32,863 nucleotides of DNA from a virus (taxonomy: Duplodnaviria; Heunggongvirae; Uroviricota; Caudoviricetes). This document shows positions 12,901-31,495 of the stretch, piece after piece; within the stretch, counting starts at the first letter, position 1, and every line of letters begins with the position of its first letter. The translations under genes and the position numbers were made by a program. The stretch is from IMG/VR virus record IMGVR_UViG_2700989508_000029. The stretch is one strand, 5' to 3'. Below the pieces are notes generated by a model. That model was given only the letters and a program-made list of their open reading frames with translations. It did no database searches and was not told where the DNA came from.

Positions 12901-12917
12901 TGGTGCGATAATAGGAA
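12901..12917. repeat. degenerate third att-like site (tggtgc-gataatagga), putative junction between the two tandem elements
   Basis: Matches 16 of 17 positions of the att core with one deleted C; the left flank (ttgattttcttaa) resembles the flank of the 538 copy; the right flank (atacccccaaaagtacccccaaa, ~12965..12990) resembles the motif between the P4-type int and thrW (acccccataagtaccccca, ~31285..31308). Confidence 0.45.
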
Positions 12918-13257
12918 CAAAACAAACAATAAAAATACATTGATATATAAAGACATTTTCCCATTACATCTTTGTAGATACCCCCAAAAGTACCCCCAAA
13001 CAATTTTCTCTCACCACCATTTGCACATAAAGCAGCCATGTACAACTGGTAGTTGAACAGGCGGGTAGACCGTTCGTTCAGTAAATACCTGATATTTCCG
13101 CCAACGAGAAATTGCGTTGGCTGGCAGAGTGCAAATTTGCACGATAACCTAACCCATTGATTCTTTCGAAAACCCGCAATGCAGGAAGCCGGATAACACC
13201 ATTTTATAGCTCCGATCCCTTCAAAGTGAGGGGTAATTTGCCAAAACAGAGAGAGCA

Positions 13258-13545
13258 TTACTGTCTCTGGCAATCTTTATCGCGATAACGCCTGAAGTAC
13301 CCTCTCGCTTCCTCATCCATACCAAGAGCCGAATGAGTCCGCTTAACTGCCTGTCTTAAATCTCCGAATCTGTCTGTAGTTGCTGGTGGGCGTGCCGCCT
13401 TACGGATACATTCAGAGCGTCTGTTTGCTGCATGTTCACGTTCTTTATCGCCATCTGCCAGCATCATGACTTCTGCCCATCGTGCGGCAGCTCTCCGGTA
13501 TAGCCCTTTTGACTCCAGCTCTTCAGCTTTCCTGTCCTTTATCAT
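13258..13545 (-). CDS. PerC-family transcriptional regulator-like protein (95 aa)
   Basis: N-terminal LESKGLYRRAAARWAEVM resembles the conserved PerC/Pch motif; basic C-terminus. From motif memory. Confidence 0.55.
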   Translation of the reverse strand: MIKDRKAEELESKGLYRRAAARWAEVMMLADGDKEREHAANRRSECIRKAARPPATTDRFGDLRQAVKRTHSALGMDEEARGYFRRYRDKDCQRQ

Positions 13546-13575
13546 TTCTGCCTCTCAGATTATATAGATAAGCAA

Positions 13576-13706
13576 AAAGGTGTTGGTTCAGTTGGTTCAG
13601 TTGGTTCAATTTGTAAAGAGCGTTGTTTTTATTGTGTTTTTTCTAAAATATTGAACCAACATCAACTCATTTTGAACCAACACAGCCCAGCTCTGAACCA
13701 ACAACA
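13576..13706. repeat. iteron module A: three tandem GTTGGTTCA units, an AT-rich spacer, then three inverted TTGAACCAAC units; putative replication-origin-like site
   Basis: Seen in sequence; 13576..13617 is the exact reverse complement of 22113..22154. Confidence 0.7.
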
Positions 13707-13744
13707 CAGCGATAGATTTGCGATTGGTCCGTTATTTTCTGGCT

Positions 13745-13795
13745 GATATTTGAGCGTATAACAGTGTTATACAGTGGTATACTGTATGGATATTA
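13745..13795. promoter_or_regulatory. operator-like palindromes upstream of the RHH regulator gene
   Basis: gtataacagtgttatac (near-perfect palindrome) and ggtatactgtatgg directly upstream of the 13805/13817 start. Confidence 0.35.
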
Positions 13796-13804
13796 CTCAC
13801 TGAT

Positions 13805-14245
13805 ATGGTCTTTGCAATGAGCAAATCTAATCTGATCGCGTTCCGCATCCCATCTGAATTGCAGGATGAGTTTAATCGGTCTGTTCTCGCTTCTGGAGGG
13901 GATAAAACCTCCTGGCTTGTTGATGCGATTCGCATGAAGCTGGGACAGCCGGAAAAGTCTATTGATTCACGAATGCTTGGGCTGGTGGAGCGCATGGAAA
14001 AAGCCGCAGCATCGCTTATTGCCGGAAAGCCGAACATCCCACCAAAGCCATATAACGAAACGGCAGTTATAAAGATCATTGCCGATACCATCCGACAGGG
14101 ATTTGATAATGGGCGTGTGATAGCTGAACGGCTCAATGAAGCAGGCTACCAAACAAAAGCTGGTAAAGCGTGGGATAAAGACATTTACAGCGCGTGGAAG
14201 CGTCAGGATAACAATATTAAAAGAATCAATACGCTGCTTCAGTAA
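13805..14245 (+). CDS. two-domain DNA-binding regulator: N-terminal ribbon-helix-helix (Mnt/Arc-like) plus C-terminal recombinase-type DNA-binding motif
   Basis: SNLIAFRIPSELQDEFNRSVL...WLVDAIRMKL fits RHH; C-terminal IAERLNEAGYQTKAGKAWDKDIY resembles the DNA-binding motif of recombinase-associated domains. Start may be ATG 13805 or 13817. Convergent with the Abi gene. Confidence 0.55.
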   Translation: MVFAMSKSNLIAFRIPSELQDEFNRSVLASGGDKTSWLVDAIRMKLGQPEKSIDSRMLGLVERMEKAAASLIAGKPNIPPKPYNETAVIKIIADTIRQGFDNGRVIAERLNEAGYQTKAGKAWDKDIYSAWKRQDNNIKRINTLLQ

Positions 14246-28964: not shown

Positions 28965-28976
28965 TTTCAGTCTCCG

Positions 28977-29411
28977 TTAGGCGGCGTTAAACGCGTCCGG
29001 GTAGAGTTTCAGAATGTCGGCAATTTCCTGCTGAGAAAGTCCGTTGTGATCATTTATGTTCGCAAGATGGTTAATATGAGTGATCACTTTCAGAACATCA
29101 CCACGGCAGGAGAAACGGTAGCGAAGGTGTGTTCCGATACCATCAGGATTCTTTTCGTCGATACGCTCCAGAGTGATTCCAAGCTGGCGTTCTAACTCTG
29201 TTGCATAGTTACGACCAGAAGACAGACGGCAGTAGCGAAGAATGTCATTTTCTGTCCATCCCTCTATACCAGTACGCAGCATATAGACTCTGGCACGATG
29301 CTTTTTCGGTGTGCGCTTTGGTGCTTGAAGGGATTTTGTAAGGGGCGTAACATCAGATACACGAATATCTGAATTAGCCGCCTGTAATGGGCGGTTTTTC
29401 TTTTCCATCAA
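28977..29411 (-). CDS. hypothetical protein (144 aa)
   Basis: Start overlaps the stop of the AlpA-like gene. Confidence 0.5.
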   Translation of the reverse strand: MMEKKNRPLQAANSDIRVSDVTPLTKSLQAPKRTPKKHRARVYMLRTGIEGWTENDILRYCRLSSGRNYATELERQLGITLERIDEKNPDGIGTHLRYRFSCRGDVLKVITHINHLANINDHNGLSQQEIADILKLYPDAFNAA

Positions 29412-29611
29412 GCCACCTCGTCTCTAGATTCTAATATACACTTCTCAATCCATTCATCTATTTCAGACTCAACAAAAGCAATTGCCCGACTTCCAATTTT
29501 TACCTGTTTAGGGAACCTCCCCTGACTAATAAGACGATAAATCCATGCTTTGCTATAACCAGTTCGCCTTTGAACTTCAGAGAGACGAATTAATGAATTG
29601 TAATTAGCCAT
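29408..29611 (-). CDS. alpA: AlpA-family phage transcriptional regulator / excisionase-like DNA-binding protein
   Basis: 67-aa protein with the typical AlpA helix-turn-helix (LIRLSEVQRRTGYSKAWIYRLISQGRFPKQVKIGSRAIAFVESEIDEWI); position next to a P4-type int. Confidence 0.8.
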   Translation of the reverse strand: MANYNSLIRLSEVQRRTGYSKAWIYRLISQGRFPKQVKIGSRAIAFVESEIDEWIEKCILESRDEVA

Positions 29612-30039
29612 TTATTAATATCCTGTACTAATGACGCAATAACTCCCTCCTGCAACGAATGGCGAGAGTTTTATTTGCGTCAAATGTCGAATACGCCAAA
29701 GACCACAATATGAAAAACATATTGCGGTCTTTTATAAAAGATAGTCAGATTGTTTTGGTTTGTTTGCTCCACAAGGGTAGAGCTACCCTGCATTTCGGCA
29801 GGATCACGCTATTAGGCGTGACATCCAGTAGTTTTAAAGAACAATTGCGCTTTGTCAGCGCCAAAGCCTGTTAAAGAACATTCCGCTTTGTCAGCGACGT
29901 AGAAGGCTCAATACACCTTCGTTTATAAAAGAGCGATTGCCCTTCTCCAGGGCTAACTGTTAAATAGCAATCCTCTGTGAGTTTTTATCAATCTACTCCC
30001 CTATACTTTAGTAAACCTCTGTATACTTGTCCAGTTGTT

Positions 30040-31254
30040 TCATGCGTGTTTTTCAAACACCATATGCACCACATTTCCGCCATGCTCGAGAGAATCCATA
30101 TAGTCGGCATACCATTGAAGCATCTCCCGCCTTCCATCCAGATATTGCGCATGGTTGTATGTGCCACGAATTGAGTTCTTATCAACGTGAGCGAGCTGCG
30201 TTTCTATCCACGCGGTGTTATAGCCCTGCTCATGCAAAATCGTACTCATAGTGTGCCGGAACCCATGACCAGTTACACGTCCAGCGTAGCCAATGCGCTT
30301 AAACACTTGGTTTATGCTGGCCTCGCTCATTGTTTTCCTTGGATCATTGCGCCCGGGAAACATAAGAGGGTAATTGCCTGTTATTTCTCTAATCTTCCCA
30401 ATAAGCGAAAGAGCCTGCTCAGACAATGGCACAATATGAGTCCGCCGCATTTTCATACGTGAAGCGGGTATCTCCCAGATAGCCTTGTTGAAATCAATTT
30501 CATCCCATAATGCGCCACGTAGTTCGCCAGTCCGCAAGCCGGTGATAATCAGTAGACGAGCCGCCATAACAACCAATGCGCTTCCTGAGTAACTGGACAA
30601 TGCCTTGAAAAAATCAGGTAATTCTTTGGCTGTAAGGAAAGGGTAATGATTAGATTCATGGCCTTGCATCGCGCTAGTAAGGTCTGGTGCAGGGTTATAC
30701 TCTGCGCGACCAGTGACTATTGCATAGCGGAAAACTTCCCCGCACCGTTGCCTCACTTTTTTGGCTTTTTCTGTAGCACCGCGCCCCTCGATGCGACGCA
30801 GCACATTCAGAAGTTCAAGTGGTTTGATTTCGGCGATGGGTTTTTTGCCAATGTAAGGGAACACATCTTTGTTGAAGGCTTCGAGGATGTCTGAAGCATA
30901 ACCAGCAGACCATTTTTTTAATTTGCTGCTGTGCCACTCAAGGGCAATATCTTTGAAGGTGTTGTTTAACTGCGTTTCCCGGGCAATCTTTTCCTCTCGT
31001 TTCGCTTCCATCGGATCGATACCACCAGCGATACCTCTTTTCGCATCTTCACGTTTTGCCCGAGCATCGGCTAGAGTAACCTCAGGATAAACACCTAGTG
31101 CCAATAGCTTCTCTTTACCAGCTACACGATATTTAAGTCGCCAGTATTTACCTCCATTAGGTTTTACCAAGAGATACAAACCGCCACCATCGGCCAGCTT
31201 GTAAGCCTTCTCTTTTGGCTTGGCTGTGTCTATTTGACGGGCATTGAGTTTCAC
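30040..31254 (-). CDS. int: P4-family tyrosine integrase (404 aa)
   Basis: N-terminal arm-binding region (KLADGGGLYLLVKPNGGKYWRLKYR), catalytic motifs (RTGELRG...HGFRHT...LAHVDKNSIRGTYNH); next to the tRNA att site. Confidence 0.9.
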   Translation of the reverse strand: MKLNARQIDTAKPKEKAYKLADGGGLYLLVKPNGGKYWRLKYRVAGKEKLLALGVYPEVTLADARAKREDAKRGIAGGIDPMEAKREEKIARETQLNNTFKDIALEWHSSKLKKWSAGYASDILEAFNKDVFPYIGKKPIAEIKPLELLNVLRRIEGRGATEKAKKVRQRCGEVFRYAIVTGRAEYNPAPDLTSAMQGHESNHYPFLTAKELPDFFKALSSYSGSALVVMAARLLIITGLRTGELRGALWDEIDFNKAIWEIPASRMKMRRTHIVPLSEQALSLIGKIREITGNYPLMFPGRNDPRKTMSEASINQVFKRIGYAGRVTGHGFRHTMSTILHEQGYNTAWIETQLAHVDKNSIRGTYNHAQYLDGRREMLQWYADYMDSLEHGGNVVHMVFEKHA

Positions 31255-31264
31255 TTGGGGGTAC

Positions 31265-31419
31265 CTCCACTAAACCGAACAGCAAATACCCCCATAAGTA
31301 CCCCCATCTGACCGTAGATTTTGAGGGACTTTAGTAGACGTCAAAAGACGAACGGGGCTTTAATACGCGGATTATAAGGGGTTTTGAAAGACTTTAGTAG
31401 ACTTGGGGAGATGTTTGAA
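31265..31419. promoter_or_regulatory. attP-derived arm between int and thrW with putative integrase arm-site repeats and the int promoter
   Basis: Direct repeats gactttagtagac (x2) and taccccca motifs between the int start (31254) and the att core. Confidence 0.35.
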
Positions 31420-31495
31420 TGGTGCCGATAATAGGAGTCGAACCTACGACCTTCGCATTACGAATGCGCTGCTCTACCAACTGAGCTATATCGGC
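31420..31495 (-). tRNA. thrW: tRNA-Thr (anticodon CGU)
   Basis: Reverse complement reads GCCGATATAGCTCAGTTGGTAGAGCAGCGCATTCGTAATGCGAAGGTCGTAGGTTCGACTCCTATTATCGGCACCA (76 nt): 7-bp acceptor stem, CGT anticodon, T-arm GGTTCGACTCC, 3' CCA; downstream of proA as in E. coli. Confidence 0.9.

Follow-up and report, generated by a model that had tools for sequence, protein, structure and literature searches.

What is an element built like a P4-type satellite doing with the DNA-ejection genes of a P22-like podophage, and with no other virion gene? The question arises next to thrW in the window, by which we mean the whole 32,863-nucleotide stretch of viral DNA analyzed here (genes, RNAs and motif copies are on the minus strand unless stated otherwise). 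The 3' end of thrW occurs as a direct repeat, with the core GATAATAGGA, in three copies at 532-561, 12894-12923 and 31414-31443. The last copy, attL (31414..31443), sits in the 3' end of the tRNA-Thr(CGT) gene thrW itself (31420-31495), and the degenerate copy attR (12894..12923) is common to a second element that adjoins on the left, in tandem. The region 12901-31438, singled out in an earlier note, is therefore one element, some 18.5 kb long and bounded by att sites, and it contains all the parts named in that note, where the note placed them.

The backbone is satellite-like, as judged by Pfam, Rfam and comparison with P4. The P4-type tyrosine integrase (404 aa, 30040..31254; Pfam Arm-DNA-bind_3, Phage_int_M and Phage_integrase) has arm-binding, central and catalytic domains and is 42.5% identical to P4 Int. 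The gene of an AlpA-family regulator (29408..29611; Pfam Phage_AlpA, E 7e-20) occupies the position of the master regulator in Gram-negative phage-inducible chromosomal islands (PICIs), and it is alpA at this same position that the PICI EcCIMP1 needs for excision (PMC11773190). The early gene block (27956..29411), recognized from PHROG anti-repressor families and from the RefSeq annotation of identical DNA, encodes a PM1773-family protein (28977-29411), an AntA-type antirepressor (28131-28964; Pfam AntA, E 1e-21) and a DUF4222 protein (27956-28138). The P4-type immunity leader (27354..27581) contains two RNAs above the Rfam gathering scores, isrK (27504-27581, 67.1 bits) and the C4/CI antisense RNA (27354-27441, 79.5 bits), and shares 71-92% nucleotide identity with the P4 cI region. 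TCCATTCGA, a segment of C4, is perfectly complementary to a sequence at about 27318, and isrK contains TCGAATGG, complementary to CCATTCGA of C4; an ORF annotated as 'Ash' (26895-27962) and an Icd-like ORF (27106-27324) overlap the leader. The ORF list gives six small early ORFs (64, 87, 73, about 200, 113 and 123 aa; 24919..26902), for which the PHROG profile matches are solely to families of unknown function. The primase-helicase (919 aa, 22176..24935; Pfam Zn-ribbon, Toprim and DUF927) matches the DNA primase family phrog_1139 (E 2e-178) and has 34% identity with P4 alpha in the N-terminal part. Beside it is a cluster of about eight GTTGGTTCA iterons (22038..22152), three direct and the complement as inverted copies, which resembles P4 crr and is a candidate origin.

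The backbone also contains a 24-bp motif, GAGTTTTCGGAGTCCATAAAAAAG, that matches exactly nucleotides 142-165 of the CUS-3-type small-terminase gene. One copy (27621..27644) lies directly upstream of the putative -35 box (TTGCCG, 27612-27617) of the isrK promoter. After the second, degenerate copy (21745-21768, 4 mismatches) comes a hairpin that resembles a terminator and has a T-run, at about 21690-21719; copy and hairpin together take up 21690..21768.

We turn our attention to the ejection operon. Its first gene is a 53-aa ORF (21430..21591) with a TATAAT box about 30 bp upstream; the protein is 75-98% identical across satellite lineages. Its AlphaFold2 model has an extended N-terminus and two helices (pLDDT 74.6), for which a Foldseek search gave no significant match, and the protein is possibly a ribbon-helix-helix regulator. 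Then come the homologues of gp14 (153 aa, 20952..21413; Pfam DUF2824 E 4e-61, phrog_651 E 2.5e-66; 83% identical to Kapi1_055), of the ejection proteins gp7 (225 aa, 20281..20958; Pfam P22_gp7 E 7e-73) and gp20 (473 aa, 18860..20281; Pfam Inj_translocase E 4.5e-58, phrog_917 E 5e-112 over the full length), and of the DNA transfer/ejection protein gp16 (701 aa, 16755..18860; phrog_770 E 3e-161 over residues 19-700), the last being 93-98.7% identical to gp16 of bona fide P22-like prophages. Neighbouring genes overlap or abut, as translational coupling would have it. The assignment of the four coupled genes to P22 gp14/gp7/gp20/gp16, made earlier from size and order, is thus borne out by clear homology for all four in Pfam and PHROG profiles, and published work, including PMC10883804, assigns P22 gp7, gp20 and gp16 to DNA delivery. 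They are the sole virion genes in 12894-31443, in line with the earlier note: when the small and large terminase, portal, scaffold, coat, gp4, gp10 and needle proteins of two P22-like prophages were compared with the whole window by tblastn, no match had an E-value below 0.1.

Directly after gene 16, on the opposite (plus) strand, is the gene of a SieA-like inner-membrane protein (204 aa, 16122..16736). It has 4-5 membrane helices predicted from hydropathy, a weak match to a SieA-like PHROG and 34% identity with the type-B SieA of prophage HS1 in the C-terminal half, including the NRYPGEAR motif; motif and gene position are as described in PMC10883804. The gene is a swappable cassette missing from many copies of the element, EcCIMP1 among them, and therefore SieA and the ejection alleles are not tied to each other in set pairs. 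Beyond a stretch that is non-coding or of uncertain status, has five GCGCGTACTG-type repeats and is 96.6% identical to DNA of a P22-like prophage (15565..16125) are an AbiD-type abortive-infection gene (14275..15297; Pfam Abi_2 E 2e-52, PADLOC AbiD E 7e-58), which is defence cargo, and a PerC-family regulator (13258..13545; Pfam PerC E 3e-33), the EcCIMP1 counterpart of which silences LEE1 expression (PMC11773190).

The next question is "does an element of this kind exist elsewhere?" The element is of a known kind, a close relative of EcCIMP1 that carries its own P22-type DNA-ejection genes and a SieA-like exclusion gene. EcCIMP1 is a PICI of E. coli MP1 mobilized by the P22-like phage vB_EcoP_Kapi1 (Pick, Stadel & Raivio, ISME J 2025, PMC11773190); it excises only upon induction of Kapi1, and Kapi1 particles carry and transduce it at a low rate, very inefficiently. 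The two islands have 98.0% nucleotide identity over 11,347 bp, which cover att, int, alpA, antA, the RNA leader, the small ORFs, primase, iterons, the 53-aa ORF, gp14 and gp7. They share the insertion site (tRNA-Thr next to proA), the gene order, a PerC-family gene, the exact 24-bp motif and the att core, TCCTATTATC as reported in PMC11773190 being equal to that of the window. They differ in gp20 and gp16, which are 439 and 906 aa in EcCIMP1 as compared with 473 and 701 aa here: the gp20 proteins are 48% identical, in the N-terminal part only, and the gp16 proteins, of which that of EcCIMP1 bears a lytic-transglycosylase domain, have no BLAST match to each other. While the window has the SieA homologue and AbiD, EcCIMP1 encodes a 232-aa protein and carries a second alpA-like gene along with further cargo; in the window, a second element lies in tandem on the far side. 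This match to an island that Kapi1 mobilizes supports the suggestion, made earlier, of a satellite-like integrative element that retains a set of injection proteins and may be packaged by a helper. A strain with DNA 100% identical to the window has a complete P22-like prophage at argW, with a TerS 88% identical to that of Kapi1.

The int-primase-ejection arrangement does recur intact. The ejection operon is covered to at least 80% in 181 of the 5426 complete E. coli genomes, and the primase/operon junction is found in 328 of them. Backbone and operon occur at a different chromosomal att site with a different integrase, and the same architecture, with genes intact and coupled, is found in at least three more enterobacterial lineages (primase identity to the window of 68% in Leclercia, 75% in another lineage and 49% in genus g96). 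All ejection ORFs are open in eight of nine sampled copies, and dN/dS among close copies is 0.04-0.29 for the ejection genes, similar to that of the primase. The satellite gp7 proteins of E. coli, Leclercia and a third lineage form one clade (100/100 support) apart from 53 phage sequences. One backbone carries at least four gp20/gp16 allele pairs, minimal variants keep only gp20 and gp16, and there are decayed copies with deletions, a frameshift or a gene fusion. A true P22-like prophage is 98.3% identical in nucleotides to the window over the stretch that begins at the end of gp20 and takes in gp16; past the swapped SieA slot the identity is 96.6% over another 565 bp. Both figures indicate a recent exchange. 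A P22-like gp10 gene is present in 3 of 10 satellite-bearing E. coli chromosomes and in 17% overall, so that there is no clear enrichment. From these comparisons we infer that the operon is probably a maintained satellite module rather than debris.

What would the module do? The likeliest role is a supply of ejection proteins in trans to particles built by the helper. The operon would probably be expressed from its own promoter, behind the small regulator. In a helper-infected cell its products would enter helper-built procapsids, and particles with satellite DNA would thereby deliver it through a trans-envelope conduit specified by the satellite. Infectious P22 has been obtained with ejection proteins supplied from a plasmid (bioRxiv 10.64898/2026.09.03.749273), and very divergent foreign ejection proteins function in P22 hybrids (PMC10883804). 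More speculatively, gp20 and gp16 would be the proteins through which SieA-type exclusion acts, and the satellite's own alleles may allow entry into cells closed to helper-type particles, helper lysogens for instance; the mutations by which phages escape SieA lie in gp16 and gp20 (PMC10883804), the same two proteins that make up the minimal satellite form. Leavitt et al. tested two SieA types, and each kept out phages that have several widely differing ejection sets (PMC10883804), so evasion through a change of allele is not guaranteed. The SieA-like protein and AbiD may, again more speculatively, be cargo that guards the host against P22-like and other phages. Several observations speak against this reading: the helper already provides its own ejection set, so that a second one has no evident use; Kapi1 transduces EcCIMP1 very inefficiently; P22-like gp10 genes are not clearly enriched alongside the satellite; the SieA-like cassette is missing from many copies; and some copies are decayed. 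We hold with moderate confidence the joint reading that 12894-31443 is an EcCIMP1-like PICI in thrW, a satellite of P22-like podophages, whose ejection proteins are supplied in trans. Absent from the text of PMC11773190 and from the literature searched are the full ejection set, its purifying selection and swappable gp20/gp16 alleles, the minimal gp20 and gp16 form matching the two SieA-escape proteins, the SieA homologue after gp16, and the identity of the 24-bp backbone motif with part of a CUS-3-type small-terminase gene.

Could the ejection proteins instead be directed against P22-like phages, and not serve the island? One possibility is that they are incorporated into helper particles, which become less infectious, and another is that they block DNA entry together with helper factors. 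This could account for the superinfection immunity that EcCIMP1 adds to Kapi1 lysogens, a known defence system having not been found in EcCIMP1 (PMC11773190); the module adjoins the SieA-like and AbiD genes, and the satellite gp20 and gp16 are very unlike those of the helper (at most 34% and 24% identity). Kapi1 titres from induced lysogens are, however, the same with EcCIMP1 (PMC11773190), so there is no obvious poisoning of the particles; ejection proteins made inside a cell are not known to have any means of blocking incoming DNA, and the immunity could stem from other genes, for example that of the 232-aa protein in the post-gene-16 slot. We regard this explanation as unlikely. A role in packaging or head assembly, in which the DUF2824 and 'DNA transfer' genes that follow the primase would divert packaging to island DNA or make it possible (Pick et al.), appears quite improbable. 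The genes do sit where other PICIs have a packaging module (PMC11773190), the PHROG label of the gp14 family is 'head morphogenesis', and the backbone motif is identical to part of a small-terminase gene; but the proteins are homologues of P22 proteins for which no packaging role was found in the literature examined, searches of the window brought up no homologue of a terminase, a capsid-size protein or a scaffold, and the motif is also present in a related element, a 17.6-kb provirus record (CheckV completeness 39%), that has no gp20 match.

The near-identity to a true P22-like prophage and the decay of some copies would also fit an operon gained by recombination with co-resident P22-like prophages and kept without function, to which we give little credence, because intact coupled operons persist across lineages with primases only 49-75% identical, the satellite gp7 forms its own clade, dN/dS is low and several full-length allele pairs are maintained. 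The other possibility raised in the earlier note, a heavily deleted mosaic P22-like prophage at thrW, is rejected as contradicted already, with almost no probability left to it. P22-like prophages do integrate at thrW, as HS1 in E. coli HS does, and the local order gp14-gp7-gp20-gp16-sieA is that of P22. Yet nothing is left of the terminase, portal, scaffold, coat, gp4, gp10, needle or tailspike genes; the early region, with its C4 RNA immunity and primase, is P4-like and not lambdoid cI/cro/nin; the structure recurs at a second att site and in other genera; and EcCIMP1 is a functional mobile unit (PMC11773190). What is probably a genuine remnant (L202) does not look like this: its gp14 and gp16 regions have split frames, and it retains part of a tailspike gene. 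The complete prophage HS1 has a different integrase and ejection proteins only 23-54% identical, and is thus not the parent.

How does the EcCIMP1-like island compare with other known systems? With P4 it shares the integrase type, an AlpA/Vis-type regulator, iterons next to the primase gene, a CI/C4 RNA immunity leader with C4-complementary sequence on each side, and the N-terminal domain of an alpha-type primase. It has no sid, delta, psu, epsilon, gop/beta/cII or cos site, its helper type is a P22-like podophage instead of a P2-like myophage, and it has the ejection-protein genes that P4 lacks. Gram-negative PICIs such as EcCICFT073 (Fillol-Salom et al., ISME J 2018, PMC6092414) likewise have int followed by alpA in one direction, a primase/replication module with an origin, a helper-exploitation slot downstream of the primase and, at the far end, accessory genes that include a PerC-like one; the window yielded no terminase-redirecting (Rpp-type), small-terminase or capsid gene, and its post-primase module consists of virion-internal ejection proteins. 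Unlike the P22-like phages (Lederbergvirus: P22, Sf6, HK620, CUS-3, Kapi1 and prophage HS1), the element lacks lysis and all the other virion genes named above, as well as the cI/cro and nin regions, while it shares with them the gp14, gp7, gp20 and gp16 homologues in the same order, a slot for an envelope protein on the opposite strand after gene 16, and a gp16 allele nearly identical to those of true P22-like prophages.

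The window corresponds to the proA-thrW region of E. coli, with a sequence identity of 100% to strain 03_3013 and of 99.9% to O26 strains. Three copies of the thrW 3'-end (532-561, 12894-12923 and 31414-31443) delimit two elements in tandem, of which the right-hand one, about 18.5 kb in length, is considered here. As in a phage-inducible chromosomal island (PICI), att repeats flank this element at a specific site, thrW, and an integrase gene is located at one end (30040-31254, minus strand); it is the first gene from thrW and is of the P4 type. The AlpA gene (29408-29611, minus strand) lies downstream of int in the same orientation, again as in a PICI. 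Reading on from there, we find genes for a PM1773-family protein, an AntA antirepressor and a DUF4222 protein, an RNA leader with isrK and C4 (Rfam, 67.1 and 79.5 bits), six small ORFs with no functional assignment, and a 919-aa primase with Zn-ribbon, Toprim and DUF927 domains. With the adjoining iteron cluster (22038-22152), a candidate origin, this primase makes up the replication module expected of a PICI. Beyond the iterons come a 53-aa ORF and the homologues of gp14, gp7, gp20 and gp16, then a gene for a 204-aa membrane protein on the opposite strand. The distal cargo end consists of AbiD (PADLOC AbiD, E 7e-58; Pfam Abi_2, E 2e-52), a 146-aa ORF and a PerC-family gene.

The second att-bounded element, in tandem on the left (532-12923, about 12.4 kb), encodes a DUF6538-type integrase (612-1976), a Dit-like tail protein (2057-2770), a 609-aa tape-measure-like protein (2805-4634), a lambda-E-type major capsid protein (4937-5965) and a replication-initiator-like protein (8075-8791), and has dense iterons at about 10350-10740. 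This, too, seems to be a small element that has only a few virion genes, and 249 of the 5426 complete E. coli genomes carry at least 80% of it.

The four ejection genes of the right-hand element give unambiguous family matches (E 4e-61, 7e-73, 5e-58 and 3e-161 for gp14, gp7, gp20 and gp16), all of them full length against the models. The similarity to podovirus ejection proteins, which an earlier note had suspected from the sizes and order of the genes, is therefore real, and its picture of an integrative element holding an ejection-protein set is supported. The 701-codon gp16-type frame (16755-18860) is open, and it is 99-100% identical in genomes where RefSeq calls the gene "incomplete, missing C-terminus" (loci L001 and L220 among them); this flag looks like an annotation artefact of a comparison with the shorter P22 gp16 model. 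A PDB sequence search with gp7, gp20 and gp16 gives no match, the NCBIfam profiles yield no family for any of the ejection genes, and the region upstream of the operon has no similarity to the regulatory regions of P22-like phages. The 53-aa protein may have a ribbon-helix-helix fold, the topology with which its structure model agrees; a Foldseek search with this model returns no significant match.

Could the element be what is left of a P22-like prophage, as the earlier note had allowed with its heavily deleted mosaic prophage? The block gp14-gp7-gp20-gp16 and, after it, the sieA slot on the opposite strand, the position of an envelope-protein cassette after gene 16, are ordered as in HS1, and HS1 is a complete P22-like prophage that resides at thrW in E. 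coli HS. The integrase of HS1 differs, however, and between the ejection proteins of HS1 and those of the element there is only 23-54% identity, so that HS1 does not provide the parent that a simple deletion would need. A tblastn search of the window with the terminase subunits (small and large), portal, scaffold, coat, gp4, gp10 and needle proteins, eight queries for each of two P22-like prophages, gives nothing better than E 0.1. The missing terminase, portal, coat and needle reported earlier are thus truly missing; for the tailspike, no listed ORF matches a tailspike family. With no remnants of the queried virion genes and with a layout that recurs elsewhere as a unit, descent by deletion is effectively excluded. 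A useful contrast is offered by a locus in another genome (L202, genome G125). Homologues of gp7 and gp20 are present there, the frames in the regions of gp14 and gp16 are split, an N-terminal fragment of a tailspike remains, and neither a primase nor any head gene lies within 11 kb. Unlike the satellites, this locus is probably a decayed P22-like remnant.

The arrangement of int, primase and ejection genes, whose recurrence the earlier note had regarded as telling, recurs in E. coli and beyond. Of the 5426 complete E. coli genomes, 141 contain at least 80% of the element, 181 the ejection operon and 328 the primase/operon junction, and in UMNK88 a related element with a different integrase occupies the yicC/dinD site. 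Intact, abutting ejection genes are also found in Leclercia (L007, primase 68% identical), in the lineage of L042 and L046 (primase 75% identical) and in a member of genus g96 (L208, with identities of 49% for the primase and 64% for the integrase). In the gp7 tree, the satellites of E. coli, Leclercia and the L042/L046 lineage group in a single clade (100/100), separate from 53 phage sequences; L208 is placed elsewhere, which implies at least two acquisitions or exchanges. Among close copies the dN/dS of the ejection genes is 0.04-0.29, with similar values for the primase, and every frame is open in 8 of the 9 sampled E. coli copies. We take the clade, the low dN/dS and the open frames as signs of long-term retention. 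Decayed copies occur too, with deletions, a frameshift or a gp20-gp16 fusion.

On one backbone there are at least four gp20/gp16 allele pairs (473/701, 488/701, 459/670 and 439/906 aa), and members with gp20 and gp16 only, such as UMNK88 and PK8241, exist. Bona fide P22-like prophages share the 701-aa gp16 allele at 93-98.7% identity. Against one of them (L029), a nucleotide identity of 98.3% extends from the end of gp20 through gp16, is interrupted by a swapped cassette, which is the sieA slot, and picks up again beyond it (96.6% over 565 bp). This mosaicism of the ejection alleles points to function. Five GCGCGTACTG-type decamers are located at 15633-16007, between the SieA-like gene and AbiD, in a stretch that is 96.6% identical to the L029 DNA past the sieA slot.

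The sieA slot of this element is filled by the 204-aa protein, which has 4-5 hydrophobic segments or predicted membrane helices. Its gene, on the opposite strand, begins 19 bp past the stop codon of gp16, and the multi-pass product and the position are those of SieA proteins (Leavitt et al. 2024). Compared with the type-B SieA of HS1, the protein is 34% identical over 118 residues (E 2e-9). SieA proteins, which keep P22-like phages from injecting their DNA, have a conserved C-terminal motif, FxRYPxEAxxFNK (Leavitt et al. 2024, PMC10883804); the 204-aa protein has NRYPGEARRARK, in which the RYPxEA core is present (RYPGEA) and the FNK part absent. In other copies the slot encodes a 139-aa protein for which three membrane segments are predicted, or has other content.

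We turn our attention to a 24-bp motif of the backbone, GAGTTTTCGGAGTCCATAAAAAAG, at 27621-27644. In P22-like phages (HS1, CUS-3, N7 and phiv205-1), nt 142-165 of the CUS-3-type small-terminase gene have exactly this sequence, and such terminase genes are the motif's only exact matches among 50,697 phage records. In IMG/VR there are 73 exact matches, 54 in the CUS-3-type terminase gene and 19 in P4-like leaders. The motif is exact in L135, L110 and L128, satellite loci of the compared genomes, despite unrelated flanks; it stands three times in tandem in a further locus (L149), and it is present in a related element whose provirus record has no gp20 match. Upstream of the ejection operon there is one degenerate copy in this element (21745-21768), and two such copies occupy this position in Leclercia. 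Judged by its sequence and location, the motif could be a regulator site, because its first copy abuts a putative -35 box of the isrK promoter, or else a pac mimic or terminase sensor, because the pac sites of P22-like phages fall within small-terminase genes, that of P22 in gene 3. Two other explanations of the motif fail: as a target of the island's C4 or isrK RNA it gives duplex energies inside the range of shuffled controls, and an origin by protein homology between the "Ash" ORF and TerS is ruled out by the unrelated flanks.

The RNA leader itself has a segment of C4, TCCATTCGA, with a perfect complement downstream at about 27318, and isrK contains TCGAATGG, which is complementary to CCATTCGA of C4. 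These complementary segments around C4 (27318-27581) resemble the seqA/seqB/seqC layout of P4 immunity. A 355-aa "Ash family protein" ORF (26895-27962) overlaps the isrK and C4 RNA genes, and its Pfam Phage_ASH match (residues 124-232, nt 27266-27593) coincides with the two RNAs, so that the protein family may partly consist of conserved RNA sequence read as protein. RefSeq treats this ORF inconsistently, as intact in some genomes and as a pseudogene with an Icd-like ORF in others.

EcCIMP1, the published PICI of E. coli MP1, has the P22-like phage Kapi1 as its helper, and its transduction is specific but occurs at a very low rate (PMC11773190). The 24-bp motif is absent from Kapi1, and we speculate that this might be related to the low rate. 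Between Kapi1 and our element, the ejection proteins are 83% (gp14), 57% (gp7), at most 34% (gp20) and at most 24% (gp16) identical. Strain 03_3013 has an apparently complete P22-like prophage at tRNA-Arg/intS (argW; L023, 1.62-1.66 Mb). Between the TerS proteins of this prophage and Kapi1 the identity is 88%, and from this likeness the prophage is a plausible resident helper; its slot after gene 16 encodes a 161-aa predicted lipoprotein instead of SieA. In general, P22-like gp10 is found in 3 of 10 satellite-bearing chromosomes and in 925 of the 5426 genomes, no clear enrichment, and no IMG/VR source genome has both the satellite motif and a CUS-3-type terS, where the expected overlap is about zero anyway.

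What, then, are the ejection genes for? Known satellites change the capsid size, the terminase specificity or the tails of their helpers, and the literature that we searched describes none that comes with DNA-ejection proteins of its own. Most likely, the ejection proteins of the island would be supplied in trans to particles built by the helper. P22 without genes 7, 20 and 16 propagates on a plasmid that supplies them (2026 preprint, bioRxiv 10.64898/2026.09.03.749273), and heterologous ejection proteins work in P22 (Leavitt et al., PMC10883804); trans supply and foreign alleles are thus both feasible. More speculatively, alleles of its own might let the island escape SieA-type exclusion, SieA-escape mutations being mapped to gp16 and gp20 (Leavitt et al., PMC10883804). 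The fullest form of this proposal has its own gp20 and gp16, with or without gp14 and gp7, form a satellite-specified entry conduit that escapes SieA-type exclusion in helper lysogens, and the 24-bp motif act as a packaging-site mimic or terminase sensor, so that efficient helpers would be P22-like phages with a CUS-3-type terminase, not Kapi1. All of this together we consider rather unlikely.

Among the rivals to supply in trans, a role of the ejection genes in interference or exclusion carries the most weight. EcCIMP1 contributes to the superinfection immunity of Kapi1 lysogens (PMC11773190); in the element, AbiD and the SieA-like gene are neighbours of the ejection genes. A packaging role comes next. 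It was proposed by Pick et al., who noted "DNA transfer" and DUF2824 similarity in EcCIMP1_017-019, in a text where the word "ejection" does not occur (PMC11773190); the profile matches here are to ejection families. Neutral cargo follows, with the decayed copies on its side and the signs of retention and the allele mosaicism on the other, and the deleted prophage comes last.

If the operon is functional, entry into the next cell would be another step at which satellite and helper compete, and the islands would offer a natural system for how SieA-type exclusion reads gp16 and gp20, a question left open by Leavitt et al. The islands are present in about 3-6% of complete E. coli genomes, commensal and pathogenic, their cargo includes defence genes (AbiD, SieA-like) and PerC-like regulators, and they are routinely mis-annotated as incomplete prophages.

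Compared with P4, the element has an integrase 42.5% identical to that of P4, a primase whose N-terminal domain is 34% identical to P4 alpha, and a CI/C4 RNA immunity leader that matches the cI RNA region. Of the P4-like core set (int, alpA, alpha, epsilon, sid, delta, psu and a cos site), however, sid, delta, psu and epsilon are absent, as are gop, beta and cII (tblastn with the P4 proteins), and there is no P2/P4-type cos, since blastn of the whole P4 genome including its ends matches only the int and cI regions. Membership in the P4 family is ruled out by the absence of sid, delta, psu, epsilon and cos.

The closest known system is EcCIMP1, an island of 19,963 bp in tRNA-Thr between proA and yagU of the commensal E. 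coli MP1 (Pick, Stadel & Raivio, ISME J 2025, PMC11773190). PICIs rely on a helper phage for their excision, replication and transfer. EcCIMP1 excises and circularises only upon induction of Kapi1, and alpA and int are required for excision (PMC11773190); for our element, the circular or concatemer junction sequence has no match in IMG/VR or metagenome contigs, which is uninformative about excision. E. coli NC101, a widely used mouse-colitis strain, has a thrW island (L226) that agrees with EcCIMP1 (L228 in MP1) both in gene order and in RefSeq protein accessions; it adjoins vat and a MarR gene, and no P22-like gp10 gene is found on the NC101 chromosome. PICIs are defined as having no phage structural or lysis genes, and while no capsid, tail, terminase or lysis genes are found in the element, four P22-type ejection/assembly genes are present. 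EcCIMP1 shares this exception, which does not therefore bar the element from the EcCIMP1 group. From att through int, the primase, the 53-aa ORF, gp14 and gp7, the element is 98.0% identical to the EcCIMP1 region of MP1 over 11,347 bp, and for this reason we class it as an EcCIMP1-like PICI. The gene order is otherwise common to the two, and replacement is confined to gp20, gp16 and the distal cargo. The element is of a kind already known from EcCIMP1, and it is a cargo variant of it.
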